A DNA stretch of 64,000 nt from Podarcis gaigeae. Its lineage: Eukaryota. A model generated the notes under the pieces. It did no database searches and was not told where the DNA came from. It saw only the letters and a program-made list of their open reading frames with translations. Shown here piece by piece: positions 96-54,821 of the stretch. The translations under genes were made by a program, and so were the position numbers. Location: assembly GCA_964106915.2 (NCBI GenBank), contig OZ066923.1. The stretch is one strand, 5' to 3'. Position 1 is the stretch's first letter, and each line of letters starts with the position of its first letter.

Positions 96-677
96 CAGTG
101 GTGTAGCGTGAGAGTTGCCAGTGCCCAGGGCCATGAGAAGGGTGGGTGGGACGGTGGGAAACAGATGAAGTATGCATGCATAATGGCATCCGCATCACCC
201 AGGAGATCACAGCCACAGAGATCAGAAAAGAAGAATTGTTCCATTGTCTGGAGAGGTCACTTCCTGGTTCTCATGGTGAAATATACTCGGAGTTGAGAGT
301 AGATTTCATGCTCTTTATTCAGCTCATAGTGGTGAGGAGGAATGAAAGTTTCCCCAAAGTATCTGCTTTATGTACATTATTTACACAATGGGCTGCACGT
401 GATTGGCTAATTCCGGAATTCTCCTGTAGGCCAATCAGGTTGTGGATTCACTTCCATCTGGAGCTGGATTGGGTGGCTCCTGCAGACCAATCAGACTGCT
501 GCATTTTGGATCCTATTCAACTCAGTACATAACACATGGAGAAGCTGTTTTTAATAGAGCCCAGCGACAGAAGCACGCAACTGTATTGAGGCAGCACAAG
601 ATGTTGAAATTTTGCGCCCCTAACAATTTTGTGCTCGGGGCAACCACCCTTGTGGGGTCCCCCATGCTACACCACTG
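96..677. mobile_element. Non-autonomous DNA transposon (hAT-like)
   Basis: 12-bp terminal inverted repeats CAGTGGTGTAGC / GCTACACCACTG; no clear TSD. Confidence 0.5.
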
Positions 678-1590
678 TATCAGCTGGAAGATAAAAAGAT
701 GGCTGGAGGAACGGGCCAGGCAATCAGAGGAGGAAGAGACCCTCCTTTGCTATCACTGAGCATGTCACAGTAGTAGGCTTCTTAATACCTTGAAGGAGAA
801 TTCTTGAAAGAGAAGCACATATAATGTCCTTTTGTAATTCACCAAAAATTAAATTTGTAATTCTGGCATAAGAATGGATAAAGAAATGGGGGGGGGGGAG
901 ATCAGGGAGGAGTTTCTACTTTCTACTTTGAGAGCTATTTGTTAGGAGGAACCACCAAAGAGGATGCGTGACTCTGCTAAAGCAGGCCTGCGTGCTATGG
1001 ATGGGAATTGAACTAGAGGCAGACAATCTGTTCTATAGTGGTAAGAACAACATTGCTGCACTCAGCAAAGAGCCCTCACATACATAAAACATTAGTGTCT
1101 GTGTTCCGTTTTACTTATTTTTTCATTCCACTGACTTTTGTGCGCACGTGTGTTTGGAAATATACTGAAGATGTAAGATTACTAAATGAGACTATTGTGA
1201 GAACCTCTGGGATATGTTCATTTTCCAGCCGAAATGTCAAAAAAGCAGATTTAAGTAGGTGCCAAATTGAAATAAAGCCCACGTGGAATGATATGTTTCT
1301 CCCACATGAAAGCCCAGTGAGCTCATTTTCTGTTTAATATCATTTTAAGGGATTAAAGAGAATTACTCAATTCCTTTGCAGAGAAAACTAAGCAAAGCTT
1401 CCAGCAGATTCAGGATAAACCCATGGAATTATATTAATAGTTGCTGTTGCTTTTATCAATTACATAGTGCCTCTTAATCAGATAATGTTCAAATCAAATA
1501 TCCGGTTACAACCCATTTTTAATAGAGGAAAGAAGGGCAAAGAAAAGGGAAATCTATTATAAAAAGAAACCAAAGTTGGATTCTCTAAAA

Positions 1591-3897: not shown

Positions 3898-5574
3898 GTT
3901 GGGAGCAGGACCTGGTCACAGAAGAAGAGTCTGTATTCTTTGTTGGTGGGTATGCTTCACCCTCAAATCAGTTCATGACCCTCATGTGCAAGTTTACCCG
4001 CAAATAAATCTGAGTTCCGTGGGCTTTTCTCCCCAATTTAGTGTGCACAGGATTGCTGTCCAATGGGCTCAAAGAATGCAATTTCTAAAGATTTCAAGAG
4101 AGAAAAGTGCTGCAGTTGAGACCAGGTGCAAATCTGTGTTAGTTTTCCCAAGAAGAATTTATAGACCCTGTTGTAAAAGAGAGAGAGAGGGAGGAACACA
4201 AACTTGCTTTGTTGGTCTTCTAACCCATCCTATTGTTGTGGTTTTTCGAGGTTTAATTCTAACTTGCTCTGCATTCCTATGCATAGAGATTGATGATAAA
4301 GGTGTTGAAAGAAGCAACAGTAAATATGCTATGGCAGAAGATTCTATATTGGAGGCATTCGGTTAGTTCTGTGGTATTTCTCAGATGATTTGTTCAGCTC
4401 CACCAGTTCGCCCCCCCCCCCTTGTCAAAAGGTCCAGCTGGATGCACTTAAGAAATGGGAAATTCAGACACCTGTGTCTTCCCCAGGGCTGGCGGTTGAG
4501 TTGGGGAGAGCCATAAATGTTTTAAGTAGTTTTGGGAGGTGTGGGTCTGGCCCTGAGGGTGATGAGTAGAGTGTGACATGGGGGTGAGGGAATGAAAAAA
4601 ATGCATACACCTATTGTGATACGCTGGAGGATTTTCCATTGGTGCAGTCACAACCAGGACCTACAACACAATAGTGCAGTATATCTTCATCCCCTACCAG
4701 GAGAGCTCTTCTTCAGGGTACCAGTGACCCATGCCCATTTCTAGGGTATTATAGGATTCAATGGCAATCCAGCTTCTTCCAATTTTCTTTTCCAGTTTAG
4801 CGGTTGCCCTCTTTAGATAGAAAAATGTCGTCTTGCATACTTTGTTGATGTCACCCTTTGGTTTACCGTTGGTGCTCAAACACTTGTGTTTGCTATTAGA
4901 AGGAATGACAGTTCTGCCTCCATTTCTATTGTTCCAATGTGTTACAATCCAGTGCTGAACAATTCACTGGATGGGCATTACAACTCTGTGCAAGCCAGCA
5001 ACGCTTTGATGGAAACTCGTTTGTCACTGCCAAGATACTTTGAATGAGTAGAAACGAACACAGTCTCATTTTACCCAGTTTATTGTTTTGGTGTGTGGCT
5101 AAGGGGACCATTGGAAGGTGTCTTATGCCACTCAGACTATTTATCAATCTATCTCAGTACTGTCTGCACAGTGGCTCTCCAGTATTTTCAGTTGAGTGTG
5201 CATATAATGGGAGACCTAAATTTGCCACTTCACAAGGTGAGAAATGGGCTACATTTTTGTCGTAGAGGTAAGATGAGTCACACCAAAGAAGAGATTCTTC
5301 TTTTATCTGTCTGTTCCTGAGGTGCTGCTTGACTACCACAGGGGATGGGGAGAGAGACAATTCAGTTCACATTCCAAGCAGAGTCTATCCAATTTGTCCT
5401 TTCCAAAGCAATACAAGAACAGAAATGTAGGCACCTTTCAAAATTCGCTCTTATCTGAATTTTGTGATGCAGTTCTCCAACTGAACAGTGCTTATAAAAG
5501 TGCATATGTTAGAAAAAGCATGCATGAAAAATCAATGTATTAGTGAACATAACATTAAAAAATGTATTATAGTA

Positions 5575-5689
5575 GGGAAGGATGGACATGGAGCGATGAG
5601 GGGACACCCGACAAGCTAGCCAGATCAGCTGAATCAATCCTAGTGATCAATGGAGTGACAGGTGTTGCAGCCAGATCGCCCTGACATCC
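5575..5689 (-). pseudogene. RN7SK: 7SK snRNA retropseudogene, 5' ~115 nt only
   Basis: Reverse complement reads GGATGTCAGGGCGATCTGGCTGCAACACCTGTCACTCCATTGATCACTAGGATTGATTCAGCTGATCTGGCTAGC..., matching the vertebrate 7SK 5' end; 12-bp TSD attatagtaggg. Confidence 0.9.
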
Positions 5690-8600
5690 ATTATAGTAGG
5701 GGAAATTGCTTACACAAATATGTGCACTGGTCAAAACAGCATACGGAAATGTCTTTTACCGTGAGAAATTCGAGCTAAGATGTTGATGAATTTTCACGAG
5801 GATCTGCAAAAATGTGCTGCGGAAATGTGGAAAGCCGAATTTAGGGTTGGAAAAATACCTGAAACCACTCAATGGGATCCAGAAGCTGGAATTGGTGTGG
5901 AGCCATTGCAGGGAAGATAACAAACAAAATGTGAACCAGCCCTTAGAATAGCAGAAATCAAGCACAATAACGGAGAGTGGGAGACATTGATGAGGTAATT
6001 ATCCCTCTCCCATTGAAAAGAAGTGTCACGCACAGGGCTGTGGGGTTTTGTGACAGCAGGAGACCATCCCATGATTATGATGTTCCTTCTTTCCCTTAAT
6101 TTATTTTTTTCTTTTCTTTTTCGAAAGGTTTTATGAGGATTGGGTGCAGCTGCGCCTCATCAAGCCTCTTCTTATTTAACATTATAAGGGACCTGATTAG
6201 TTTAGAGCTTGATTCAGCTGCTGCTTATGGAAAGCTTGGCCCTGCCTAGGATGCTCTTGCTACAAAATTTAAGATAGAAACTCTCTGAACCAAATATAAA
6301 TGCTCTGCCCGCTGATAGATGCACATGCCGATTGCTCTCCCTCCACCTTTCTACTCCTGGCTATATTTCTGCGATTCACTGTGAATCTGTAGTTTAACAT
6401 ATCTCTCTATAGTGTGATTTTTCTTCCCACTTCAAGAAAGTCACAGAGTAGTAACAAATGTATCTGGCAGTATTTAGAATTCCAAAGCAAAGGCTGTTGT
6501 TTTTGCCAACAAGAAATCCCTTAATACTAATGAAAACAGGCAGAGCTGAGCAAACGACAGTCAATTGAGGGCGATTCGAAGTTTGACCTGAAAATAATCT
6601 GGATAGAATCTTTGAAAGGGTAAGAGAGATTTATGAAGGAATTCTGGGGCTCACACTCTAAGCGCTCCTTCTCACTTATCCTTGAAGGTTCACTCCCTTC
6701 TATAGCAGTTCATAACATAAAAACATGAGTCCTGCAGGATTAGACCAGAGGCCCATCCAGTTCAGAGCTTTCTGAGCTCTCTGAGACTTTGGGGAAGTGG
6801 GGTGGATACTCTCCAGAGACTGTGGATCTGTTAAGTCTCTCTCTTCTAGTGTTTCTTTTGCTAGCTGTTCCCCATCCAGTATTTCCCAGCTTCTGCCTTC
6901 TGAACTATGCCCCTCTGCAAACCACTGTTCCAAATCTATACTGTCCTCCTGCTCCTGGCAAGATTCAGGATCAGGAGGGGGGTGGCAGCTCCCACTATTC
7001 TTCCTCAGTGCAGCCCACCTCTGCACTGTGACTAGGAGCCATTATTTTCATTCTCCATGGAAAGCTGGAAACGGTGCTGTATTCTTTACCACTAGTTTAT
7101 GGATTGAGGTTGCAGTTGTTTTCACAATCTAGCTTTCTTGAAGGCACACAATGGCTCACAACAGGCTCTGCTTATTGAATGCAACAAGACTCTCAGTAAC
7201 ATGGGTGGCTGGGTAGGGAAACCATGGAAAGCGGCTATAAATTTCAGTGGGGAGAGGATGTGGGGGATCTCAAAACCCTATATACAAATTGCAGGTGTTC
7301 TTTTTGCCTTTTCCAAGATTTCTTCAAAGTAATCTATTCAGACCTTCACAATTATTCACACTTCAGAATGGGCTGAACCACTTGAGACTGCTCTAATCGG
7401 GATAGGGTTAACGTTGGATACAACCCAATAGTTTTCTTTTTAAAAAATTCTCCAACTAAATATATTTAACATTCAAATAAGCCATCTGTAAAATAAAAAG
7501 GAAAGGAAAAATGATGTGAATAGCAAGAGATGGGAACAAGCAAAGAAGATTATTGAGGCAGATGAAGTGCTATGATAGTCATTTAGAAAGTATATTCACC
7601 CGCCTAATGATGTACTTTCATTACCTGGCCACAAGGTAAGCATTTTCCTGATGTTTGCCCAATTCTTTGTGAGTCAACCATTCTTCCTTACTCTTGAACT
7701 TTGGGCAGTTGCAGGGGAGCAGTGTCTGATAATGCAAATAGCTTTAGAAATGAACCATTGTCTGTTGACTCCTATACAGCCATAAACATGTTTGCTGTAA
7801 TTGAGGCATGGTAGGATTTGTAGCACGACTGAAAGATGAAAACAGCCCAGATTAATGACTCCTCTCAGCCCGTGTTCCGACAGCCCCTTTTTCAAAGCAC
7901 CAATATTACCCACTTAAAAAATGGAAATCTGCCAACATTTGACGTACCACTGCCGCCACTTTCGACATGCCAGATGGTACTAAAAATTCAAAATATTTCC
8001 TATAACAGCTGTATCTTTGACAACAAAATTAATACAGGCAGAAACTTCCACTGCTGCATGTAGGCCACACTGGTCAGGTTTCTCGCTTTAAGGTCTAATG
8101 TAACAAGAGTTAATAAATAGATCTGATCAGCTCGGCGCTGGATGTCAATCATGTGTCCACGTCTGATGTTCAAAACCAGATGCAAAGCTCGGTGTCTTTA
8201 TAGTTTAGCAGCTGCTCTAATAAGACTGTAAAATACACCTTCCCCTAGAGTGACAATAAATGTGTTAACACTTTCTTGCAACAAGCCCTTTCCTATAGCT
8301 CATCAGCTTCTTGCCTCAAGCTCTGTCTTTATGTATTCGGTGACATAAATCTTACAAGCATATTTGACCAGAAAGCTACTCTTCAAAGTCTGGATAGTGC
8401 AATTTGGCGTTTTTAAATCCCTTCCTTTGATGCCAGGAAAAGAAGATCTATTGAAAAGAGAGAAACTATAAAATGCAATCCTACTATACACATCTACTCA
8501 GAGGTAAGTCCCACTGACCTCAGTGGGGTTTACTCCTAGGTAAGAGGGTATGGATTGCAGCTCACATACACTTCCTTCTGCATAGATATGTGCAGGATTT

Positions 8601-9002
8601 AGATCTGGAAATTGCTGCCTTTGTGTAAAGCATCATTTGAATGGGTTCCCGGGTTAATCAGCATAACCATGTAGCCTGACCAAAATGCTTAAATTTAAGT
8701 CAATGCATTTAAATCATCTTTATCCTGCTGAAGTCAATTGCACTAGTGTCTGGGTTCTAAGCATATTTGTAACATATTTCAGGCTCTTAACCACCCATCA
8801 CAGATAAAAAGTGAATTCATTTATTTTTTTTACCCTTATTCCCTATGACCATTCTTTCTGCCATTAATAAATGAATTACTGTTGCTCTGTCTTCAGGAAG
8901 GACATTAGAGCTTACATAGACAAAGAGCAAGACCATTGGGTCCAATATTAAATCATAGCCTGTCAGTCTTTACTTTCAGCATGTATCGATGTAATACGGT
9001 AT

Positions 9003-9596
9003 TGTTATGACTTGCAGCTGCAGAACACCCTTAAATTCCCGGTGGGTGATAGAAGTTAATTAAGGCTAGGAGTGTCAAAACATAGCTAGACTCGTGTGTA
9101 TTAGGCCAAACCTGTGTGTATGTAAGCTGTGTATTGGAGACTTCTAAATCCTGTAATCAACATGTGTCAAAAGCTAATTCAGCCAGGACTAGCTTCTTGC
9201 GTGAGGTGTTAGCCTGGGGGTAAGGACCCATTAAGACAACAAAACTTCAAAGGGAACTCTGTGTGAAACGGCAAAGGGATAGGGCCCCTTTTACTCCACA
9301 GATCAAGCAACATGGGTTAGAAGCTGAGAGGAGTTGTGTTCCGTGAGAAGTGGGAAGCAGGAGGCAGAGCAATGGCTGGCTGGAATACAAGGCTGTGCTT
9401 ATGGATTAAGAAAGACCCTCCAGGAGTGTGACGCTAGGAACCCCTTACACATATGCTCAGGTTGTACATATGTGTAAACAAACCATATATCATAAAGACA
9501 CCACAGTCTCCGCTGTGCCTCATTTTCCAAAAGGAAACATGGATCCTGGAATTCCTGGAATCTCACACCACTTGGAGATTGGAGTGGCCTGTAACA
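9003..9596 (+). mobile_element. Probable solo LTR
   Basis: TGTTA...TAACA termini, flanks gtat/atat, LTR-like composition. Confidence 0.5.
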
Positions 9597-9682
9597 ATAT
9601 TGTACAATTCTATCCAGGGTGTGCAACTAGGTTTTTTCACCTAGAATGTAGGCTATTTGTTCTAAGAGCCATTGTTGTTTAA

Positions 9683-9870
9683 GCCACATCCACACCATAC
9701 ATTTAAGGCATTATGATACCACTTTAAACAGCCAATGCTTCCCTCAAAGAATTCAGGAAGCTGCAGTTTGTTAAGAGTGCTGAAAGGTGTTACGACATTA
9801 TTCTTCTCTCAGAACTACAGTTCCCAGAGTTCCCTGGGAAGTGTAATTGACTGTTAGACCACTCTGAAAC
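9683..9870. mobile_element. Squamate palindromic MITE family copy
   Basis: Shares 'cccaaagaat...gggaa.tgtagtttgttaag...aactacagttccca' blocks with 12170-12885, 22928-23118 and 58603-58800. Confidence 0.6.
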
Positions 9871-10559
9871 TTGTGTCTCTTACTCCCTTCTTTGCCCACC
9901 CACTCACTCAACCACTTTGAACTACAAAAACTGGCATTTTTACAACTTCCACATGATGTTTGTTTTGCACTTGCAAGAAACCAGTCTTTTAGTGTTGAAT
10001 TATTTCAGGTGCCAGCTAAAAGCTTTCTTGTTTGAGCAAGTTCACCAGACATCATCATCATCATCATCATTATTACAATTAAAACACAATGTTTTTGTGT
10101 ATATTTGCTTTTAAAACTGCCGATTTTATCTATATTTTTATAATTTTAGTCTTTTTACTGTTTTTGTTGTCAACTATTTTGAAATATTTTACATTATTTT
10201 ATGTAAACCGCTTAGAGATTTTTTGTTGTTTTTGTTTTATTCACTGGTACATAAATTTTGTGAAATAAAGTAAGCATTGATACTTCAGAACCAGGGTTAT
10301 TCGGACTGTGTTATTGTGTTTCTCCACACTCCTGAAGAGTGCGGCAATAATTTTCAGGCTGTGCTGAACTGAATCAGTATTATTGGGCTGAAAGATTATT
10401 GTAGCCAAATGCAAGGTCAGGGAAAAAGACATGTCCCTTTTCCAGCATTCCGTTTCACTAGCTCAATTTAAGCACAACCCATTTCATGTTATACACATTA
10501 CAATATACAGTTTCAAATGCAATTCCTTCAAAAGACTTACAAATCTTTCAACCTCTCTA

Positions 10560-10840
10560 GAAATACTGTGCACCATTCTGGCTGTCTCTCGCTCCAAAAA
10601 GAATATTGTACTGCAGCAGGAAAAGGTTCAAGGAAAGGCAACCAAAGTCATCAAGGGGAATGGAGGCTAGAGCATTTGATTATTTTTAGTTCAGAGAAAA
10701 GGCATCATAGTAGAAGTGCACAAAATTATGTATATAGAAAGTGGACACCAAAAAACTTTCTCCTCCCCCACATAATACCCACATTGAATGAACCTGGGTA
10801 CATTCAATGAAACTGAGTGTTGGAAGATAAAGGACAGACA
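10560..10840 (+). mobile_element. CR1 LINE RT fragment, interrupted by a Sauria SINE
   Basis: Decayed EYCAPFW...EKVQGKATKVIKG motif typical of CR1 ORF2; continues after 11192. Confidence 0.7.
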
Positions 10841-10842
10841 AA

Positions 10843-11191
10843 AGGTAAAGGGACCCCTGACCATTAGGTCCAGTCGTGACCGACTCTGGGGTTGCGGCAC
10901 TCATCTCGCTTTATTGGCCGAGGGAGCCAGCGTACAGCTTCCGGGTCATGTGGCCAGCATGACTAAGCCGCTTCTGGTGAACCAGAGCAGCGCACGGAAA
11001 CGCTGTTTACCTTCCCGTTGGAGTGGTACCTATTTATCTACTTGCACTTTGACGTGCTTTCAGACTGCTAGGTTGGCAGGAGGAGGGACCGAGCAACGGG
11101 AGCTCACCCTGTCACGGAGATTCGAACCACCAACCTTCTGATCGGCAAGTCATAGGCTCTGTGGTTTAACCCACAGCGCCACCCGCGTCCC
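10843..11191 (-). mobile_element. Sauria SINE, full length
   Basis: tRNA-like head GGGACGCGGGTGGCGCTGTGG with B box GGTTCGAATC, (ACCTTT)n tail, TSD taaaggacagacaaa. Confidence 0.92.
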
Positions 11192-12223
11192 TAAAGGACA
11201 GACAAATAAAACGTTTATTCACACAGCCCATAGCAACAGCTCTAAATTCTGGATTCATCCTTCTTACCAACCAGAAACAGTGGGGGATACCCATTTGTCA
11301 TCTCACACAGAACCCATTTCCTTTGTTCTCTTAATGGCCAGGCGATCACCTCATCAGGAAGCTACCCTGGCTTCTATTTTAACATTTCCTGAATCCAGGG
11401 ATTAGAACAGTCTCTCATACAGCCTGCTTCCCCCCCCCCCCAACTCATAACAGACTTTTTGGGAGCTCCTTGCTATTGCAGGAGTAGGTACACCTTTGAG
11501 CATTTTTGGGTCATACAGCACTTCCCCCCCCCCCCCACATGACGCCAGGTGCTCATGAGCCACAAACAATCCATGTGCAATGATTGGCAATTAAAATGCT
11601 ATCTCTCCCCACCCCAACCCCCATCATATTACAAACCCTTGTAGACGTGATATACTTGGCAAGTATCTTATGCTGTTAGATTACCAAGAACTGCATGCGA
11701 CAGAAAGTTTCAGAAGGAAAAGATGGCATTAAAGCACACTGAAATTTGGTGAGACAAGTCTAGACATGTGCATAGCTTCCCTGATGCTCTGTTTGATCTT
11801 TGCAAGTGACATAGTTCATTGGTAGAAGAGTGAAGCGGTGCTTCTCGAAAGGCTTTGGCTGGATTAAGCTGCGATATCTGGCTTTGGCTCTGGACAGAAT
11901 TTATGCTGCATGGAAATGGATGGTTGTTTTGTGGGTGGGTGTGGCTGCTTCCTTAGGCCGAGAGACAAAACATATTCAACTCTAAGATAATGGAGAAATG
12001 TGGAAATGCCTTAATTGCTAAAGCCCACCCCCTGACACTCCCTGGCACAAAGCTTCTCCAGAAGTGTCTTCTTCCATTGGGAAAGACAAGTTGTGTTCTG
12101 GACAGCAGGCTCAGAGGACCATTGCTTAGAAGAGAAACAGTGTCTGAGCCTGTTTTTGAAGCAGACGCAGTATGCATCCACATCATACATTTGAAGCATA
12201 TTCAACACACTTTTAAAACACAT

Positions 12224-12720
12224 TTGTTGTTGTTGTTTAGTCATTTAGTCGTGTCCGACTCTTCGTGACCCCATGGACCAGAGCACGCCAGGCACTCCTG
12301 TCTTCCACTGCCTCCCGCAGTTTGGTCAAACTCATGCTGGTAGCTTTGAGAACACTGTCCAACCATCTCGTCCTCTGTCGTTCCCTTCTCCTTGTGCCTT
12401 CCATCATTCCCAACATCAGGGTCTTTTCCAGGGAGTCTTCTCTTCTCATGAGGTGGCGAAAGTATTGGAGCCTCAGCTTCAGGATCTGTCCTTCCAGTGA
12501 GCACTCAGGGCTGATTTCCTTAAGAATGGATAGGTTTGATCTTCTTGCAGTCTATGGGACTCCGAAGATCATTCAAAAGCATCAATTTTTTGGCGATCAG
12601 CCTTCTTTATGGTCCAGCTTTCACTTCCATACATCACTGCTGGGAAAACCATGGCTTTAACTATACGGACCTTTGTTGGCAAGGTGATGTCTCTGCTTTT
12701 TAAGATGTTGTCTAGGTTTG
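12224..12720 (-). mobile_element. BovB (RTE) LINE 3' fragment nested in a MITE
   Basis: Encodes SRDITLPTKVRIVKAMVFP and MRREDSLEKTLMLG...WLDSV; (CAA)n tail; TSD ttaaaacacat/ttaaaacagat. Confidence 0.92.
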
Positions 12721-13183
12721 TTAAAACAGATGGCTTCTCCCAAAGAATAATGGGTATTGTGACCCCCCCCCACAGAACTACAGTTCCCAGTGCCCTTAGC
12801 AAATTACAGTTCCCAGGATTCTTTGGGAGAAGTCATGTGCTTTAAATGTGCATTGGACATGCTTCAAATGTATGGTGTGGATCTGCCCGAAGTCACCTAG
12901 ATTCGCTCCCATTCTGCATCTTTCCACAGTCAAGAAATGTTAGGATCAAATTGCCTGTCACGTTTAACGGGTACTACACAGCTACATTTCTAGTTCCCCT
13001 CCTTTATTTAATAATAGGCAAATTTTATTAGAAATGTTATTAGGACTGGGACTGGAAGAGGAATATATCCCTTCCCTCCTCCCTTGCCATCGGGGTGAAA
13101 ATTGTGGATATGAGGATTAGAAAAAGACTCCCATTGGCATAACCCATTTAACTATGAGGAATAGGGAGGGGTGCACATCACCT

Positions 13184-13556
13184 AGGAGTGAGTGGTGCTG
13201 TGGTCTAAACCACTGAGCCTCTTGGGCTTGCGAATCGGATGGTTGGTGGTTCGAATCCCCATGGCAGAGCGAGCTCCCATTGCTCCTGCCCAGCTACTAG
13301 CAGTTCGAAAGCATACCAGTGTGAGTAGATAAATAGGTAACACTGTGGCAGGAAGGTAAACGCCATTTCCATGCTCTCTGGCATTTGTCATGGTGCTCCG
13401 TGCGCCAGAAGTTGTTTAGTCATGCTGGCCACATGACCCAGAAAGCTGTCTGCAAACAAACGCTAGCTCCCTCGGCCTGAAGCAAGATGAATGCTGCAAC
13501 TCCATAGTCAAATTTGACTGGACTTAACCGTCCAGGGGTCCTTTATTGTTACCTTT
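13184..13556 (+). mobile_element. Sauria SINE, older copy
   Basis: Alignable to the other copies; ACCTTT tail; TSD cacatcacct/cacatctcct. Confidence 0.88.
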
Positions 13557-13845
13557 ACACATCTCCTCCCTACACATTGTGACAATGATAGCAATTACCT
13601 TTGTACCTGCAATTAAAAAAAATAAATTAAGCATCGTGCATTAAACATAATGTGTAGTTTGCCCCACGTGAGCCATGTCACTGAATGTCTTAACATGCCG
13701 CAAAGTAGAGTATCTGTAGCAAGAGAGAACACACAGGAGCTTCTGAGAATGCCATTTTTTGGCCCAGGAAGGATACGCAGGGATCACATGGTTGCCTAGG
13801 AATAAGCCCCATTGAACTTGGTGAGACTTGCTCTACAGTATAGAT

Positions 13846-14206
13846 CAGGGGACAGCAACCTTTTCCAGCTGTGGGCCAGTCCACCATCCCTCATACCTGT
13901 AGTGGGCGGACTATATTTTTCTGGGGGAAATGAACAAATTCCTATGCCCTACAAATAACCCAGAGATGCATTTTAAATAAAAGCACACATTCTACTCATG
14001 TAAAAACACCAGGCAGGCCCCACAAATAACCCAGAGATGCATTTTAAATAAAAGCACACATTCTACTCATGTAAAAACACCAGGCAGGCCCCACAAATAA
14101 CCCAGAGATGCATTTTAAATAAAAGCACACATTCTACTCATGTAAAAACACGCTGATTCCCGGACCGTCCGCAGGCTGGATTTCAAAGGTAGGTTGCCTA
14201 CCCCTG
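13846..14206. mobile_element. hAT (Charlie-like) non-autonomous element with an internal 71-bp tandem array
   Basis: CAGGGG...CCCCTG termini, perfect 8-bp TSD gtatagat, ~2.8 copies of a 71-bp unit starting at 13951, 14022 and 14093. Confidence 0.88.
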
Positions 14207-14678: not shown

Positions 14679-15030
14679 AGGTAAAGGTAAAGTGACCCCT
14701 GACCATTAGGTCAAGTCGCAGACGACTCTGGAGTTGCGGCACTCATCTCATTTTATTGGCCGAGGGAACCGGCGTACAGCTTCCGGGTCATGTGGCCAGC
14801 ATGACCAAGCCGCTTCTGGAGAACCAGAGCAGCACACAGAAACACTGTTTACCTTCCCGCTGGAGCGGTACCTATTTATCTGCTTGCACTTCGTGCTTTT
14901 GAACTACTAGGTTGGCAGGAGCTGGGACTGAGCAACGGGAGCTCACCCCATCGCAGGGATTGGAACCGCCGACCTTCTGATCGGCAAGCCCTAGGCTCTG
15001 TGGTTTTAACCACAGTGCCACCCACATCCC
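14679..15030 (-). mobile_element. Sauria SINE
   Basis: Full length, TSD aagttacactta. Confidence 0.92.
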
Positions 15031-15107
15031 AAAGTTACACTTAGGACCCATCAAAATCAATGTGGAAGCTGCTACAATATTTCAGCCTGAAATCCTAGCC
15101 ACACTTA

Positions 15108-15469
15108 AGGTAAAGGTAAAGGTACCCCTGCCCGTGCGGGCCAGTCTTGACAGACTCTGGGGTTGTGCGCCCATCTCACTCAAGAGGCCAGGGGCCAGCG
15201 CTGTCCGGAGACACTTCCGGGTCACGTGGCCAGCGTGACATCGCTGCTCTGGCAAGCCAGAGCCGCACACGGAAACGCCGTTTACCTTCCCGCTGGTAAG
15301 CGGTCCCTATTTATCTACTTGCACCCGGAGGTGCTTTCGAACTGCTAGGTTGGCAGGCGCTGGGACCGAGCAGCGGGAGCGCACCCCGCCGCAGGGATTC
15401 GAACCGCCGACCTTTCGATCGGCAAGTCCTAGGCGCTGAGGCTTTAACCCACAGCGCCACCTGCGTCCC
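15108..15469 (-). mobile_element. Sauria SINE, distinct CpG-rich young subfamily
   Basis: Full length, TSD tagccacactta, variant 3' region (gcccgtgcgggccagtcttgacag). Confidence 0.92.
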
Positions 15470-17634
15470 AATAGCCACACTTACTTGGCAGTAAATGCCA
15501 TTGACTTCAATAAGACCAGAAATTGCTTGGGTTGTGCTTTATGGCTCCTCATGGTTGGTTTTGTATAGTTGCCTTTTTCTGGAATAAGCAGAATGTCACA
15601 TTTCATACTTGGAAATATGACAACCTTGCTTAAATTACCCAGCTTTGCCTCACAATGCGGGGTACACACAGCACACCCCTACTCCCTGTGTGAGCCTACT
15701 ACCATCAGGTGTGCTGCCACACCATCAGGCACAGTCTTGTCCTTTGCCTCAGGCAGCAAAATGTATTGGGCCAGCCCTGGGACTCAGCTATACAGCTGTG
15801 GATATAATGTTTTAAGTGCATTATACAAATATGACACTAGATGGCGATGGTGAGCTAATGGCAAATTCAATATATTTTTGAAAATGTTTATTTTAAAAGC
15901 ATTTTCACAGTGTTTTTGAAAATACATATGTAGATTCCACCCTGGACATTTAAGATCTATGGCAGCTGCCAACTCCATTGCCACAGATACTACTGTGTTG
16001 ATAAATCCTCTTCTAACTGAGCAATTCTAATTCTGAGCAAGGGAATTATGCTATATTTTATAAGGGTTTGATTAACTAAGGGCCTGGACCTTCCAGGTAA
16101 ATACTTAATTATTATTATTATTTATTTTTTAAAAAAACAGTAAAAAAGAAAGAAAGAAATCAGAAATTATTGCAAGTAAAGGAGACCTGCTTTACCTGAT
16201 TTAGGGCAAATGGTTGGTTGTTCTACCATAAGCAAACCCAGCCTGTAAGACTAGATAGCCCAGTGTTGCTGATCTTGCTAAAACGGCTTAACTTTCCATT
16301 GCACCCGTGATTAGCATCACTCGGCCATTATCTTGATAGCACTGATAACATGCAAATATGAACCCAAATCCTCCTCTGTTTTATCTTGAGCAAGTCATGC
16401 AAGGCCTATCATCTTAGCTGAGTCATTCTTGTCCTAGCGGAAGACCGATGCTCTCATCCTTGATGTGCCTTTGTTCTGTGTGCACTTTTCATCATAACAG
16501 TTATCTTATCGGGTTTTCGTTTGTGTAGGCTCTCGCTTCAGAGTAAGCGCTAGCTGCGTGCAACTCCCGTTTCAAAACAGCTCGTGATGAGTCGGCACTT
16601 TGTGAAGTGTGCTCTAACTGTTTGCTCCACTCCACTGTATGATACTTAACATTATGATGATGGAGGCACTATGACAGCGACACAGAGAGTAGGCTTCGCA
16701 TCCATCCACTCCAAGTAAATCACTAAAAAAATATGCTGCGTCAAACTGTTTCCTAAATTGACCCAAACTTGAAGAAAATAAGCACATGAGTTGCACGAAA
16801 AATAATTCCGCCATGGACTGGAAAGTGAAATAAAATTATATGCTATACAGAGAAGGAGAATATGCTGATATAACTAATTCTAATAATTTCTGGACAAGCT
16901 AGAAAGACTGCCCCCTGTGTTCATTCATTCTACAGGTAATAATTTGAAGGGCGGGTTAAACATTCAAAGACTTCAAAGGCAAAGGTTGCTCCTCATTTCC
17001 AGTTCCTTTATTCTACACACCAGCAATTTGCATAAAGAACATTCTGATACATACCTTTGTTTCCCAAAATAACCTTTGAGGGACTCCATAGTCACAACAC
17101 TGCTATAGGGAAACTCTTTCCTGTGAGATGATCTAGCATTGTGTCTGGTCTAAAATGTCATTTTCATACAGGAAGCAGGAAGCATAATGTCTTGATGGCA
17201 AGCGTATACCTACCAATAGGAAACTCAGGATTCGGCTAACCCAAAACAATAAACTCTTGCCACTGGGAAACAGTCTCTTTTGTGATGTCCTAACATAATA
17301 TCAGGTCCAAAGCATTACTTAATGGGCCAGATGCTTAAAGGGACAACATCCTCACTCTTGCCACTATATCCACAAATAAGGACTCTGAGGCTTTGCTACT
17401 AATTTAACTTTGTGTTAGCCCGGGTCATACATCCCTGTTTCTGGGATATTCCTCCTTTGGCATTGCAATTGACCCAGACCTTTGCAAGGTGAAAAGGGGT
17501 ATTTTGGGGGAGCAGAGAATGTACGAAGTTCTTTATTTCAGCTGCATCTGAACCTCTGGGTTGAATAAGAAAATGGGAAACAGGAAGCAATTTGAGCTTC
17601 ATCAAACTTTGGCTGCTCTTCTGACTTTCCCTAA

Positions 17635-21046: not shown

Positions 21047-21525
21047 AGCATCTTAAAAAGCAGAGACATCACCTTGCCAACAGAGGTCCGTATAGTTAAA
21101 GCCATGGTTTTCCCAGTAGTGATGTATGGAAGTGAGAGCTGGACCATAAAGAAGGCTGATCGCCGAAGAATATGGTGCTGGAGGAGACTCTTGAGAGTCC
21201 CATGGACTGCAAGAAGATCAAACCTATCCATTCTGAAGGAAATCAGCCCTGAGTGCTCACTGGAAGGACAGACCCTTCAATACTTTGGACACTTCATGAG
21301 AAGAGAAGACTCCCTGGAAAAGACCTGATGCTGGGAAAGATGAAGGGCACAAGGAGAAGGGGACGACAGAGGATGAGATGGTTGGATAGTGTTCTCGAAG
21401 CTACCAGCATGAGTTTGACTAAACTGCGGGAGGCAGTGGAAGACAGGAGTGCCTGGCGTGCTCTGGTCCATGGGGTCACGAAGAGTCGGACACGACTAAA
21501 TGACTAAACAACAAAACAACAACAA
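21047..21525 (+). mobile_element. BovB (RTE) LINE 3' fragment
   Basis: VRIVKAMVFPVVMYGSESWTIKKADRRRI peptide; (CAA)n tail. Confidence 0.92.
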
Positions 21526-22510
21526 AGGTGTGTTATTTTGTGGGTAGGGAGACCAAACAGGTGAAAATGTGACTTGAAGTGCAGCAGGGTGGATGTGAAA
21601 TGCTGTGTTTTAAGCCACCAATGTGTACATAGCCTGAGTTTCAATTATTTCCCTTAAACCGTTTGCAGTTGCTTCAAGGCCAAAGTTGCAAGAGAGCCCG
21701 GCAGACTCAGAGAATCTCCATACTCCCTTTACAAGACTAGCACAGGAAGAAAGTGGACAATCAGGCTATGAGAGTTTGCATCGGCTGTCTATTATTATTC
21801 GTCTTTGATTTATACAGCCCTACTGGGTCTGCTGCAGACAAACTACCAAATAAAATCCCTTAACACAAGAAAGAGAGTTTTGGACAGACGGTTTTAAAAT
21901 GGCATGCTAAATTCTGTCTGGAGCATTAATATAAAACTATTTATTGAAAAAGACCTCAGAGTGCAGTGTTTCAGTATGATGACTTTAACAGCTCTTCAGA
22001 TGAGGAGAAGAAGAAGAGGAGGAGGAAATTAGCTTATCTGTAACTGTTTTACTGACTCTCAAGAAACTTTGTCACATTTGCCTATCAAGCGTGTGAAATG
22101 GGGATTTCACAGCTTGCAACCCATTTTCTCCATGCATGCAACTGATATCTTCCTTACCCAGGAAAGATAAATAAATAAAACAACATCTCTTTGAAAATCT
22201 AAAAGAGACAAATTGGCGGGTCGTTTTAAGATGGAAAGTCTGTGTAAAAAGAAACTGGATCTGAAAGTTAGGGGGCTTTTTAAAAAAATATCAAATAGCG
22301 GAATTAAGGATGAGTTGGCAGAAGTAACAGCGATGCTTTCGGAGGGCAAAAATGGGTGAGGTTTCTTCACAGGTTTTGGAAGAGAGACATAAGCATGACA
22401 CTAATATCTAGGATCAAAGCTAGCCTGGGCATCTTCACTGTGCATTCAAAGCTCCTGGTTCTGGCAATATTCCTGAAGTAGCACACCACTACTGTAGTGG
22501 CTACTGTAAT

Positions 22511-25467: not shown

Positions 25468-26169
25468 AAATATCATATCAACAACCTCAGATATGCAGAT
25501 GACACAACCTTGATGGCAGAAAATGAAGAGGAATTAAAGAACCTTTTAATGAGGGTGAAAGAGGAGAGCGCAAAATATGGTCTGAAGCTCAACATCAAAA
25601 AAACCAAGATTGTGGCCCATCACCTCCTGGCAAATAGAAGGGGAAGAAATGGAGGCAGTGATAGATTTTTACTTTCTTGGGCTCCATGATCACTGCAGAT
25701 GGTGACAGCAGTCACGAAATTAAAAGATGCCTGCTCCTTGGGAGAAAGGCAATGGCAAACCTAGATAGTATCTTAAAAAGCAGAGACATCACCTCGCCAA
25801 CAAAGGTTCATATAGTTAAAGCCATGGTTTTCCCAGTAGTGATGTATGGAAGTGAAAGCTGGACCATAGAGAAGGCTGATTGCCGAAGAATTGATGCTTT
25901 TGAATTATGGTGCTGGAGGAGACTCTTGAGAGTCCCATGGACTGCAAGAAGATCAAACACATCCATTCTTAAGGAAATCAGCCCTGAGTGCTCACTGGAA
26001 AAGACCCTGATGTTATGAAAGATTAAGGGCACAAGGAGAAGGGGACGATAGAGGACGAGATGGTTGGACAGTGTTCTCAAAGCTACCAGCATGAGTTTGA
26101 CCAAACTGCGGGAGGCAGTGGAAGACAGGAGTGCCTGGCGTGCTCTGGTCCATGGGGTCACGAAGAGTC
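25466..26169 (+). mobile_element. BovB (RTE) LINE fragment including the RT YADD motif, tail missing
   Basis: INNLRYADDTTLMAE...LGSMITADGDSSHEIKRCLLLGRKAM; internal deletion near 25998; ends at gaagagtc. Confidence 0.92.
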
Positions 26170-26777
26170 AGCCCTGATGAGACTGAGCAGGGGTGCTGGC
26201 AGGGGAAAAGGAAAAAGAAAACACTTGTTGACCCAACCTGCCCAGCAAAACAAACTTTTCCATCACACATGGCTGCTGCGTTCTCCTGATGCCCTGCATA
26301 ACGCTGCATTGTGAGGATGGGATGTGGCATCGGACTCAGAAAGCAATGCAGGGATGGCACGAGGAGCAAAATGCACCCTGGGAAAAACTGCACCTGAGGC
26401 AATGGCCCCTCCCTTGCCCCGCCCACGCTACACCTCTAGTGGGATGGTGGCCATGCATCCTCATGGCGCAGCTCCACACAGAGGCCCGATCTTCAAAGTT
26501 TGTAAATGCATATTGGCCTGATCACATGATGCATTGCACTTTCCTGTGGACCTCGTACGAATGGTTTACAGCTCTTAAGTTCCTATTTATGCTTGCTCCA
26601 CCATGTGGAAGTAGTTTTGGGTAGCAAAAATATTGCCTGCAGCACATGCCATCAGGGAAGGGGGTATTTCCAGCTAAGCACCCAATCCCTTTTCTGCCTT
26701 AGAAAGCCTTATAAGAAGCTCAAAACAAAAAAAAATTCCTTCCAGTAGCACCTTAAAGACCAACTAAGTTAGTTCTT

Positions 26778-26818
26778 GGTATGAGCTTTCATGTGCATGC
26801 ACACTTCTTCAGATACTA
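26778..26818 (-). ncRNA. Minimal type I hammerhead ribozyme motif, inverted copy
   Basis: Reverse complement AGUAU-CUGAAGA-AGUGUGCAUGCACAU-GAAA-GCUC-AUACC. Confidence 0.65.
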
Positions 26819-26886
26819 GTATCTGAAGAAGTGTGCATGCACACGAAAATACTGGTATCTGAAGAAGTGTGCATGCACACGATACT

Positions 26887-26926
26887 GGTATCTGAAGAAG
26901 TGTGCATGCACACGAAAGCTCATACC
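26887..26926 (+). ncRNA. Minimal type I hammerhead ribozyme motif
   Basis: GGUAU-CUGAAGA-A-GUGUGCAUGCACAC-GAAA-GC-UC^AUACC: stem I GGUAU/AUACC, palindromic stem II, minimal stem III. Confidence 0.75.
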
Positions 26927-27226
26927 AAGAACTAACTTAGTTGGTCTTTAAGGTGCTACTGGAAGGAATTTTTTTTGTTTTGACTATGGCAGACCAACAC
27001 GGCTACCTATCTGTAACTGGAATTATAAGAAGCTGCCGCAGTAAAGGGACCGTGAAGAAGCCTGATGGGAGGTGTGTTTCTAGGCCCTGGGCAAAACTGT
27101 TCACACCCCCTTGTTACTTTTCCTACTGCTAGATGTCATGTTGTTACATTTGTAGCGCTGAGATGTTGGGGTTTGAGGTATGCTATCACATTTCCTTGTT
27201 ATGTTGCTGTTTTATTATTCCTGGTA

Positions 27227-27587
27227 AAAGGTAAAGGTAAAGGGACCCCTGACCAGTAGGTCCAGTTGTGACCGACTCTGGGGTTGCGGCACTCATCTTG
27301 CTTTATTGGCCAAGGGAGCCGGTGTTTGTCCACAGACAGCTTCCGGGTCATGTGGCCAGCATGACTAAGCCGCTTCTGGTGAACCCGAGGAGTGCACGGA
27401 AACACCGTTTACCTTCCCGCCGGAGCGGTACATCTATTTGCACTTTGATGTGCTTTCGAACTGCTAGGTTGGCAGGAGCAGGGACTGAGCAACGGGAGCT
27501 CATCCCGTCATGGGGATTCGAACTGCCAACCTTCTGATCAGCAAGTTCTAGCCTCTGTGGTTTAACCCATAGCGCCACCCGTGTCTC
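27227..27587 (-). mobile_element. Sauria SINE
   Basis: Full length, TSD tattattcctggta. Confidence 0.92.
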
Positions 27588-28059
27588 ATATTATTCCTGG
27601 TATTGTGGAATTATTCTTGCAACTATTGATTTTTGTGATGCATCACTTTTCTCCTTGTAAGCCATGTCTCCCCCCCTCCCATGATTATGCAAACTGGCCT
27701 TTAACTCACTACAAGTCCAATTTACAAAGAAGGCACTTTTAATTTAACTGAAATAGAAATCCAATATATATCTAGGGGGATCCCTCACCTATGACATGGC
27801 CTCCTTTTTGCTTTTGGAGAAATCCAAACGACATGCCACAAAGAGCAAACGCTGGCTTATTTCAAAAGAGAAAATCAAAGCGCTGACACACACTTTTGCA
27901 ACATGTGCTATGCAGCTGCTAGTTCTAACCCAAGATATAATTACAGAACCAGGGATGCTTATGAGTAGCTAGCTTTCCATGTTCCCTTGGGGGCTTCTTC
28001 TTCTATGTTTGGTCCTCCACACCACACAGAGAGATGCACGCGGGAAGCCCAAGGTCCCC

Positions 28060-51352: not shown

Positions 51353-51539
51353 NNNNNNNNNNNNNNNNNNNNNNNNNNNNNNNNNNNNNNNNNNNNNNNN
51401 NNNNNNNNNNNNNNNNNNNNNNNNNNNNNNNNNNNNNNNNNNNNNNNNNNNNNNNNNNNNNNNNNNNNNNNNNNNNNNNNNNNNNNNNNNNNNNNNNNNN
51501 NNNNNNNNNNNNNNNNNNNNNNNNNNNNNNNNNNNNNNN
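51353..51539. other. Assembly gap (187 N)
   Basis: Run of N. Confidence 1.
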
Positions 51540-51884: not shown

Positions 51885-52709
51885 CACCATTGCTTAGCTC
51901 TGGCCAATACAAGAAGCTCAGAGGAAACCAGAAGGGAAACCAGTAGACCAGAATCCATCAGGTGACACTCTGACCCCTATACAGACTTCAAGTCAGGCTT
52001 TATTTCTGGTATGAACAATTAGGAGATTGATGGTCAGCTTCATTTCGTTGTTGCCTTTGGGGGAAAAACAGAAGAGAAGAGAATGGCAACAAAACTGCAA
52101 TTTGTTTGTTCTGCCTGTCATTGGCTCTGTCTCCACTTACTGCTAGGCCACATTCACCCCATTCATCTAAGCGCGTGGCTTCCCCCAAAGTGTAGTTTGT
52201 TAAGGGTGTCGTGGACTGTTGCTCTGTGGTGTATGCTGTAGGTGTGACCTTGGTCTCCCTGCCCTCCACCCTACCAATCCCATTGGGCACCAGCTACCAT
52301 GAGGAGTTTTGTATCACATTAGATTTGTGTAATGACATATTTCACTCTAATGCTCCAATGCCAAACATATCTTCTCTGGAATAAGGTCTATTGGTTTTGA
52401 GTTAAACTTCAAGTAAGCGTGCTTAGGATTGCAACATCATTTTAATTTTTAGCTTGTGGTTTTGTTATCGCTGTTATGTGAAAAGGGCCTTTTCTTCAAG
52501 CAATCACATGAGTCCAGCAATGAGGGAGGATGAATTCTTTGTTGGGTGTGGGTATTTATGGTGATGACCCATTTTGGCACTGTCTGTGGTTCCTGGTTAC
52601 AGACTGCCTCCATTATTACCCTGCTACATTAGCTGAGTCATCATCTGATCTTCGCATGCCAAGTACTCTAGCTAATACACCGTGTGTTGGTACACACTAA
52701 AAACTGCAT

Positions 52710-53147
52710 TTTTCCAGCAGTGATGTATGGAAGTGAGAGCTGGATGATAAAGAAGGCTGATCGCTGAAGAATTGATGCTTTTGAATTATGGTGCTGGAGG
52801 AGACTCTTGAGAGTCCCATGGACTGCAAGAAGATCAAACCGATCCATTCTGAAGGAAATCAGCCCTGCGTACTCACTAGAAGGACAGATCATGAAGCTGA
52901 GGCTCCAATACTTTGGCCACATCATGAGAAGAGAAGACTCCCTGGAAAAGACCCTGGTGTTGGGAAAGATGAAGGGCACAAGGAGAAGGGGACGACAGAG
53001 GATGAGATGTTTGGACAGTGTTCTCGAAACTACCAGCATGAGTTTGACCAAACTGTGGGAGGCAGTGGAAGACAGGAGTACCTGGAGTGCTCTGGTCCAT
53101 GGGGTCACGAAGAGACGGACACGACTAAACGACTAAACAACAACAAA
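52710..53147 (+). mobile_element. BovB 3' fragment
   Basis: RVPWTARRSNRSILKEISP...KLRLQYFGHIMRREDSLEKT; (CAA)n tail; TSD aaaactgcat/aaagctgcat. Confidence 0.92.
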
Positions 53148-54821
53148 AAGCTGCATGCATTTAGGACAAATGTCTTATAAACAAGCATGCATGACCTTTT
53201 CCCATTCCAAAATAAGAACTGCAAGATGAGCACCATTCCAAGTACATAGGTGTTGTAAGCCATAAGCCATTCACATTTGTAAGTGCTTGGAACTACAAAG
53301 AGTTATATGAAGTGCTAAGTACACTTCATTGTTCATTGTGGGAGAATTCAAAATCTGGCCTCTTGTCTGATAAACTCGTGGTAATCATACTAACATAACA
53401 CATTCTGAATGAAGTGTTAACATATTTTGTTGGCATCTCTCTCTTTTTTCAATAAATGCGCAGAATATATAGCGGGGGAATACAATGAGGCTTGCGATCA
53501 TGCACACTTGGGAGCAAGCTCAATTAATCTGAGCGGGGCTTAGTTCTGATGTATAGGATGGAAGTGATCAACAATTGTAGAAACTGTGGGAAGATCACAA
53601 CAAGACACAGGAGGTTACGTTATATCTAGAAAGTTGGCAATTACTAGTTCAATATATTATAAGAAAGCCCTGGGAAAAGATATCTGCTCTGAACAAATGG
53701 GATTGTGGCAAGATTTTTACATGGCAAAGTTCCTAGCATTTCACTAACAGTTCACTTTCATGCTTTATGTAATCTTTCATACAATGTAAGGGCCAATTCT
53801 GGAAATCTAATGGAATCTGATGGAAGCTTAGCATTCATTTCCATGATAATTTTTCCCCAGGAAAAAAATGCAACCTCGTTAACTCAGAAAATAACGAGAG
53901 TTTTACATTGTCATTTCCCCATGGTTTTCACAATCATGCGACCACCGTTTAAAATTTAGCATGGCATGGTAGGATGTCAATTGAAAAAGCCATAGTTCTA
54001 TAATGCAACAGTTATTCCAGTGTAAGAGGAGTGTTAAAAATCAGGACATTTTAAGTAGTGAAACTAATGCAATGAACCGCTCATCTGAATGCAACCTTGG
54101 AGAATTGGATCTGAACATGATAGGCAGCTGAGTAAATTGCTAACTCACCTTGGCCATGTCACGTTCTTGCAGTATTAGTTCCTTATCCAAAACATGGGGA
54201 GAATAATAAGCTCTCAATTAAGTTTTGAGGACAAGCAAACTCATATTGTACATTTCTGTCCCGTCCCCTCCTTTGTAGCACTGATACTATGGAACCCCTT
54301 TCTAATGGAACTTCATCCCTTTCTATGGAACAGAAGGATTTATGTTGGAGGAAGCTCCTATAGGGAGCCTTCGGATCCATCCAGTGCATAGTTTTCTCAG
54401 CAAATATAGAAGATCTAAGTGCATCGTTTACCTTACATTTTGTTCTACCCGGTAACCTTTGTGGTTTAGACATGAGTTCTCCTTGGTGATTATAACACAT
54501 TGCAAACCTTATATCTCAGGGAAAGAATGTGCGGCATGCTCAGTGCTGAAAAGAAGACAAAAACAGGCTTGCTTTCTCATGCGATAGAGTTCAGGTCTAG
54601 GCTACTTGGGAATCTTGAGGAATGAGTTGTGTTGTGATGTTGTGACAGTCTGAAGGAGGTGCTGAAGGGAAGGGCCGTGTCACACCGGTCTGCCTTCTGA
54701 AATTGTAATGCGAGTCAGGTAAGTGGTATCTGCAACAGAATGTTGCAATATAGACTGCTCCAATTCAGGGTTCCAGCTGGCCAGCCAGTCAGCCATGCTG
54801 TTTTCCATGATACTCCATTTA

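Follow-up and report, generated by a model that had tools for sequence, protein, structure and literature searches.

Structure of the insertion

We analyzed a 64-kb stretch of DNA, hereafter called the window, in which a 302-bp insert occupies positions 26721-27022 and is flanked by an exact 12-bp direct repeat (26709-26720 and 27023-27034). This agrees with the original prediction, which had described an insert of ~300 bp between 12-bp target-site duplications (TSDs). The features of the locus are as follows, with the strand in brackets.

26709-26720 (no strand): left TSD, 12 bp, 9/12 A/T
26721-26817 (-): inverted, 5'-truncated copy of the repeat end, tail absent; 97 nt, 2 substitutions and 1 gap relative to the right arm
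26779-26816 (-): inverted minimal hammerhead, damaged; stem I has 4 bp, 10.1-11.1 is G-U, C17 at 26783
26787-26848 (no strand): local palindrome at the head-to-head junction, 31-bp arms, no loop, centre 26817/26818
26813-26848 (+): array unit 1, 36 bp; opens with ATAC and runs through the stem I 5' strand, the core and stem II to GAAA, cleavage site absent
26849-26881 (+): array unit 2, 33 bp; like unit 1 but stops after G12, GAAA and cleavage site absent
26886-26927 (+): intact minimal type I hammerhead motif; predicted cut after C26921
26887-26982 (+): direct arm of a high-copy repeat end (putative 3' part of a pLTR)
26983-27022 (+): one-sided 40-nt extension, a tail of the type found in Penelope-like elements (PLEs)
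27023-27034 (no strand): right TSD; the exact match of one contig of run X11 starts at 27023

Two long arms, 26723-26823 and 26881-26981 (101 nt, 96% alike, 57 nt apart), form a predicted hairpin with a stability z of -25, and none of 100 shuffled sequences was equally stable. The hairpin had been correctly predicted. However, its proposed centre, gatact/agtatc, is that of the local palindrome with 31-bp arms, whereas the long hairpin is centred at about 26852. The tail at 26983-27022 had no place in the original prediction. We also tallied exact 12-mer pairs lying 250-400 bp apart in the 64-kb window and obtained 10 pairs in 5 places; apart from this insert, such pairs occur only around four other multi-copy inserts. 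Given that the inverted and direct arms show so few differences, the insertion is probably young.

Hammerhead motifs

The sequence bears out the claim that the insert holds four catalytic cores, one inverted and three direct, with spacings of 36 and 33 bp between the direct ones. A CUGANGA core, GAAA, a palindromic 15.2-16.2, U16.1-H17 and stems I and II occur together in one of the three direct cores and in the inverted core. A descriptor of the minimal hammerhead, one of the checks that had been recommended, gave two matches in the window, one per strand and both inside the insert, and none in 100 random 64-kb sequences.

Two complete minimal hammerheads with a stem I of GGUAU/AUACC had been claimed. 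The last direct copy is indeed intact: it consists of a 6-bp stem I, CUGAAGA followed by an A, a 5-bp stem II, GAAA, a palindromic GC and UC, its G10.1-C11.1 pair is G26900-C26913, and its C17 falls at 26921, where the cut had been placed. The inverted copy, in contrast, is not complete, as its stem I ends after 4 bp in an A.C mismatch and a G-U pair (26804/26791) takes the place of G10.1-C11.1. An unpaired A between positions 9 and 10.1 is present in all four cores; it had been noted as an extra A in the last direct and the inverted copy. PMC4209133 gives, for the minimal hammerheads of PLE terminal repeats, a consensus with an unpaired base between 9 and 10.1 and a palindromic 15.2-16.2, so that the 'extra A' represents the norm.

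We also searched Rfam, in which no curated hammerhead model matched the insert. With E values up to 10, there were 24 matches, none of them to hammerhead families; positions 26880-26935 gave no match at all, and the whole window had no hammerhead at the gathering score. Since the motif has no stem III, such a miss would be expected. The matches on the hairpin were all to microRNA precursors (best MIR1222, 66.4 of 90 bits); they were below the gathering score and were set aside as hairpin artefacts.

In an alignment of eight pattern-selected motifs, whose rows are not independent and in which three of the pairs are fixed by the search pattern itself, 89.1% of cells pair, two-sided changes occur in five of eight pairs, and for three measures 0 of 500 shuffles did as well. 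The exact motif was found in none of the viral contigs and none of the metagenome contigs scanned. A relaxed pattern gave six matches in five loci, with stems present in L002, L003 and both motifs of L004; L001 and L005 have poor stems and were kept in the motif alignment with the rest.

The closest known motifs are the PLE minimal hammerheads, which, in PMC4209133, share CUGANGA with one unpaired base, G10.1-C11.1, GAAA, the palindromic 15.2-16.2, the lack of stem III and a stem I of 4-6 bp; opposite-strand pairs 100-700 bp apart are described there, and such a pair is also found here. By eye, the turtle example in figure S3 of that article shares the core and GAAAGCU, while stem I and stem II each carry one two-sided change; that article does not tie it to a PLE ORF either. 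The present locus differs from those described there in its two extra truncated cores, which have no cleavage site, and in the damage to its inverted copy.

Probable Penelope-like origin

Anatomy and literature give good support to an origin of Penelope type, with a hammerhead of the minimal type I. In descriptions of PLE insertions (PMC3846280 and PMC8557442), the 5' end carries an inverted copy that is 5'-truncated, the junction is palindromic, and a tail of 30-40 bp is found on one side. The insert has an inverted, 5'-truncated copy at its 5' end with a palindrome at the junction, a tail of 40 nt at one end only, and a short TSD in an AT-rich target (12 bp, 9/12 A/T); the TSDs of rotifer PLEs are 8-10 bp (PMC3846280). 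It resembles the EN+ PLE insertions of Arkhipova 2013 (PMC3846280) and Craig 2021 (PMC8557442) in its head-to-head inverted copy, junction palindrome, one-sided tail and short TSD, and solo pLTRs are a further shared feature, but it differs from them in having no ORF and in its 33-36 bp units, which end inside the hammerhead and not at the pLTR end.

The PLE-type origin named in the original prediction thus matches published features, except that a link to an RT gene is absent. No RT or GIY-YIG ORF was found in the 64-kb window, and as none could be tied to the repeat, PLE membership rests on anatomy and motif. Protein searches with repeat remnants in two of three frames returned no RT protein. 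With one frame, two of the three protein candidates were read-throughs of other repeat copies and were rejected; for the other frame the figure was 0 of 1.

At the metagenome locus L004, the same hammerhead core lies downstream of the end of an RT/GIY-YIG ORF and, inverted, again upstream. Longer relatives of this ORF end carry RVT_1 (4/4 matches) with atlas support, and GIY-YIG is weak (E 0.017). The two L004 cores, at 276-304 (-) and 1357-1385 (+), are in diverging orientation and frame a PLE 3' half in which a frame change separates the RT end from GIY-YIG. Nothing useful came from searching the PDB with this RT end.

Abundance of the repeat family

Next, we aligned all contigs of 4 of the 23 listed runs to the stretch 26881-27225, in which only the last core lies. 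The numbers of aligned contigs per run were 13,879, 11,794, 13,790 and 7,497, almost all of them on the repeat, so that all four runs (7,497-13,879 contigs each) show a dispersed multi-copy family; the depth is not a copy number. Cover drops from about 10^5-10^6 to tens at the TSD. Between 928 and 1,241 contigs per run lie only partly on the stretch, with loose ends at both boundaries (agreement 0.36-0.39). Among the 5' loose ends, 26888 (4/4 runs) and 26886 (3/4 runs) have the best support, and among the 3' ones 27018 and 27022; agreement is low, and since the letters upstream in the reference are specific to this locus, the reference itself in part determines the 5' positions.

In each run, 231-277 contigs extend beyond an end of the stretch. 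Given that the 3' end is single-copy, nearly all of these presumably cross the 5' end, and most must align there via the left GATAC. This suggests that the fold-back junction is common in the family. In the table of contigs that return to the stretch, 11 of the 12 rows listed (30 further exist) return to 26886-26888, the strand not being stated, and in two of the listed rows the restart is preceded by a short insert, a forward piece from this same 5' end, which is a stutter on either strand reading. The array junctions of the present locus are not among the listed rows. The protein candidate P0001 reads through another repeat copy, first the inverted and then the direct arm, and hints at a longer native upstream part in some of the copies.

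Variants at a frequency of at least 3% are absent from 26887-26920 and occur at 12 positions in 26921-27022, a contrast that is slight evidence (Fisher p 0.04; 0.19 once the T run is left out). There is accordingly no stem covariation within the family at that frequency in 26887-26920. C17 reads U in 6-10% of the family depth.

We also considered whether the insertion is shared. In run X11 (organism F), one contig matches from 27023 onwards, and its leftward sequence, 23 or 469 nt by the record's numbering, is unlike the tail, which is consistent with an empty site. In run X4 (organism B), one contig joins the tail to the flank, with a short side of 24 nt and a depth of 4.9, both under the thresholds. 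Runs X1 and X2 (organism A) have zero cover at 27037-27132 and so give no verdict on the junction. The insertion is apparently filled in organisms A and B and empty in F, and it may thus serve as a clade marker.

The insert resembles Poseidon_Ac of Anolis carolinensis (Frangieh 2024, PMC11167929) in several features: inserted copies with a hammerhead close to their 3' end, an ATG in stem II, a downstream tail and an AT-rich target. Here, a frame of 25 codons starts at the ATG inside stem II (window 26906-26980, +) and is broken by a TAA, which reads AAA in about 25-42% of the family depth. The tail begins with another ATG, also in good context (window 26986-27021, +). By analogy with Poseidon_Ac, either ATG could be the start of the element's ORF.

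Separately, an 18-mer from the tail matched 10 prokaryote loci, which we regard as chance; nine of the 10 match over at most 20 nt, and the tenth, L011, matches over 31 nt in a bacterial-looking contig.

Origin of the tandem array

The three direct units, of 36, 33 and 40 bp, extend over 26813-26921, differ in length and by one base, and all open with ATAC. Unit 1 overlaps the end of the inverted arm, so the array straddles the fold-back junction, and units 1 and 2 end 4 and 7 nt short of C17, before the cleavage site. The two junctions are distinct: that between units 2 and 3 has a 2-nt overlap (GA) and that between units 1 and 2 has none. ATAC is also the four bases directly after the predicted cut (26921/26922) and the reverse complement of the stem I 5' strand. 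In the literature searched, which covered few subscription papers, we saw no report of hammerhead cores repeated in tandem at 33-36 bp at the junction of a PLE.

We propose, with a probability of about 0.6, that the locus is a single 302-bp insertion of a very high-copy, hammerhead-bearing repeat end, likely a PLE pLTR, that the inverted arm and the extra cores arose from fold-back and template jumps during reverse transcription, and that the resulting hairpin buries both hammerheads as predicted by folding. The anatomy, the abundance and the predicted folding are results; in our reconstruction of the steps, an element-encoded endonuclease would nick the AT-rich site, and reverse transcription would start at the tail and reach the 5' edge of the hammerhead. 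There, on two occasions, 4-5 nt of inverted sequence would be added and synthesis would resume 28-32 nt back, which would account for the units of 33 and 36 bp; on a third occasion, 97 nt would be copied back on itself to give the tail-less inverted arm. Joining to the target would then leave the 12-bp duplication. Arkhipova 2013 (PMC3846280) argues that a head-to-head palindrome can form only if an antisense template primes itself, which is a different route from the inverted-piece restarts and 97-nt fold-back proposed here. The insertion is thus likely to be a mostly ordinary, young PLE-type copy, whose inverted and stuttered ribozyme pieces are by-products of insertion.

It is also conceivable, though we consider it rather unlikely, that the PLE insertion occurred in the same way and that the array was made later in DNA, by slippage or by end-joining with templated insertion at the palindrome, so that a 33-36 bp stretch was duplicated twice. 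Because the units straddle the fold-back junction, a later duplication fits nearly as well as template jumps, and the ATAC at the start of all three units, taken from the end of the inverted arm, together with the GA overlap, agrees with it. In addition, long palindromes are prone to breaks. However, the junction between units 1 and 2 has no overlap at all, slippage between two ATAC words predicts a full 40-bp unit and not units of 36 and 33 bp, and short restarts occur at the same edge in other copies.

Since ATAC follows the predicted cut, both junctions also resemble a jump across the cleavage site. The RT would re-anneal on the 3' strand of stem I, copy AUAC up to the cut and jump the break to a point 4 or 7 nt into the 5' product, in a telomerase-like manner. 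Each junction can be written as an intact arm that stops 4 or 7 nt short of the cut and is followed directly by the four post-cut bases, and the inverted piece in unit 2 ends at exactly four bases. However, because of the complementarity of ATAC to stem I noted above, fold-back yields the same letters. The return points of other copies are scattered (26903, 26908, 26910, 26917, 26941 and others), and no listed row inserts ATAC. Likewise, no 5' loose end falls at 26922 among the 24 rows listed (700 further exist), and insertion of the Anolis Poseidon element did not require cleavage, with no reads ending at the cut (PMC11167929). Such a record of cleavage is therefore doubtful, and it would be a long shot to read the array as the fossil trace of a Penelope RT that, on a template bounded by its own hammerhead, made repeats in a telomerase-like way and restarted each unit at the scissile bond. 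If it were true, genomic arrays would be the first in vivo record of PLE hammerheads cutting during retrotransposition, countable across thousands of copies. PMC8557442 and PMC11167929 leave open both how the tandem and inverted ends of PLEs arise and whether PLE hammerheads are active in vivo, and with the abundance of this family and its short restarts at the hammerhead edge, both could be addressed by junction counts in one assembly.

An assembly artefact at the palindrome is very improbable. The aligned stretch 26881-27225 held the last core alone, which leaves room for such an artefact, but the units differ in length and in one base, each of the two junctions has its own form, the TSD copies match exactly, and the sole N run in the window lies at 51353-51539.

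It is scarcely credible that the array is a nascent non-LTR retrozyme, that is, a tandem hammerhead repeat replicating via circular RNA: tandem hammerhead-derived units from pLTR-like sequence are what has been proposed for retrozyme birth (Li 2026, bioRxiv 10.64898/2026.07.22.740005), but neither of the two extra units has a cleavage site, only one of the three direct units is complete where two complete units are required, and 33-36 bp is far below the 51-972 bp reported there.

Predicted folding and function

The original prediction held that transcription in either direction yields a hammerhead, which could cut a host pre-mRNA. In equilibrium predictions, to which all the folding results below are limited, the isolated motifs do fold: the minimum pair probabilities are 0.86 for stem I and 0.98 for stem II of the direct hammerhead, and 0.74 and 0.88 for those of the inverted one. 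In read-through RNA from either strand, the antisense arm is made before the ribozyme. In all six folds of such RNA, stems I and II both had a minimum pair probability of 0.0. With the first hairpin held fixed as a kinetic trap, stem I of the composite fold stayed at or below 0.013 over eight nascent lengths. These near-zero values do not support a ribozyme either way, and both hammerheads are predicted to be buried in the finished hairpin.

When the three direct cores were folded without the left arm, the last copy's own stems fell to 0.02 and composite folds appeared, in which the core of unit 1 or 2 pairs with the last cleavage site (stem I 0.79-0.87). This is the one modelled result in favour of the original prediction, and it would require a start inside the insert. 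It had also been noted that such motifs may cleave as dimers. The middle cores have no GCUC, however, and as there is one AGCU-bearing ribozyme per strand, no dimer partner exists in cis.

The proposed cutting of a host pre-mRNA fares no better, as no host gene was found among the scanned ORFs and the ribozymes are buried in read-through folds. We compared 130 ORFs with Pfam (69 of the 80 ORFs of at least 90 aa and 61 of the 368 shorter ones, a selection that short exons may escape) and obtained one sub-threshold match (TMEM213, 19.8 of 27 bits). A scan for bacterial promoters was empty, which is irrelevant to the locus.

A bidirectional ribozyme device thus seems most improbable. Although there is one descriptor match per strand and the composite fold forms without the left arm, the read-through and trapped folds, the damage to the inverted copy and the lack of a partner in cis all argue against it, and the insert is apparently absent in organism F. 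Moreover, published minimal hammerheads are described as inactive as monomers and weak as dimers (PMC4209133), and of the Xenopus hammerhead dimers one of nine is reported to have cleaved. The locus is therefore likely to be inert as a ribozyme, as far as folding models can tell. If it were transcribed throughout, it would give a duplex RNA of about 100 bp, so the dsRNA that had been suggested is plausible on that condition.

Other features of the window

An Rfam match to 7SK lies at 5415-5689 (-), with 88.9 bits against a gathering score of 35. By eye, the likeness is limited to the first ~110 nt and is followed by AT-rich DNA, with a short direct repeat around the match, so that it is likely a processed pseudogene. 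A multi-copy repeat of ~350 bp occurs at 10841-11191, 14680-15031, 15108-15470 and 27229-27588, with exact direct repeats of 12-15 bp flanking the copies; it is SINE-like and may be of the Sauria type. Copies of a second repeat, 80-95% alike, lie at 12214-12707, 21047-21535, 25767-26169 and 52709-53149 and are presumably BovB-type LINE 3' ends. The look of the repeats around the insert suggests that the host may be a squamate. Finally, a near-perfect 71-bp tandem repeat with about three copies is found at 13946-14151.
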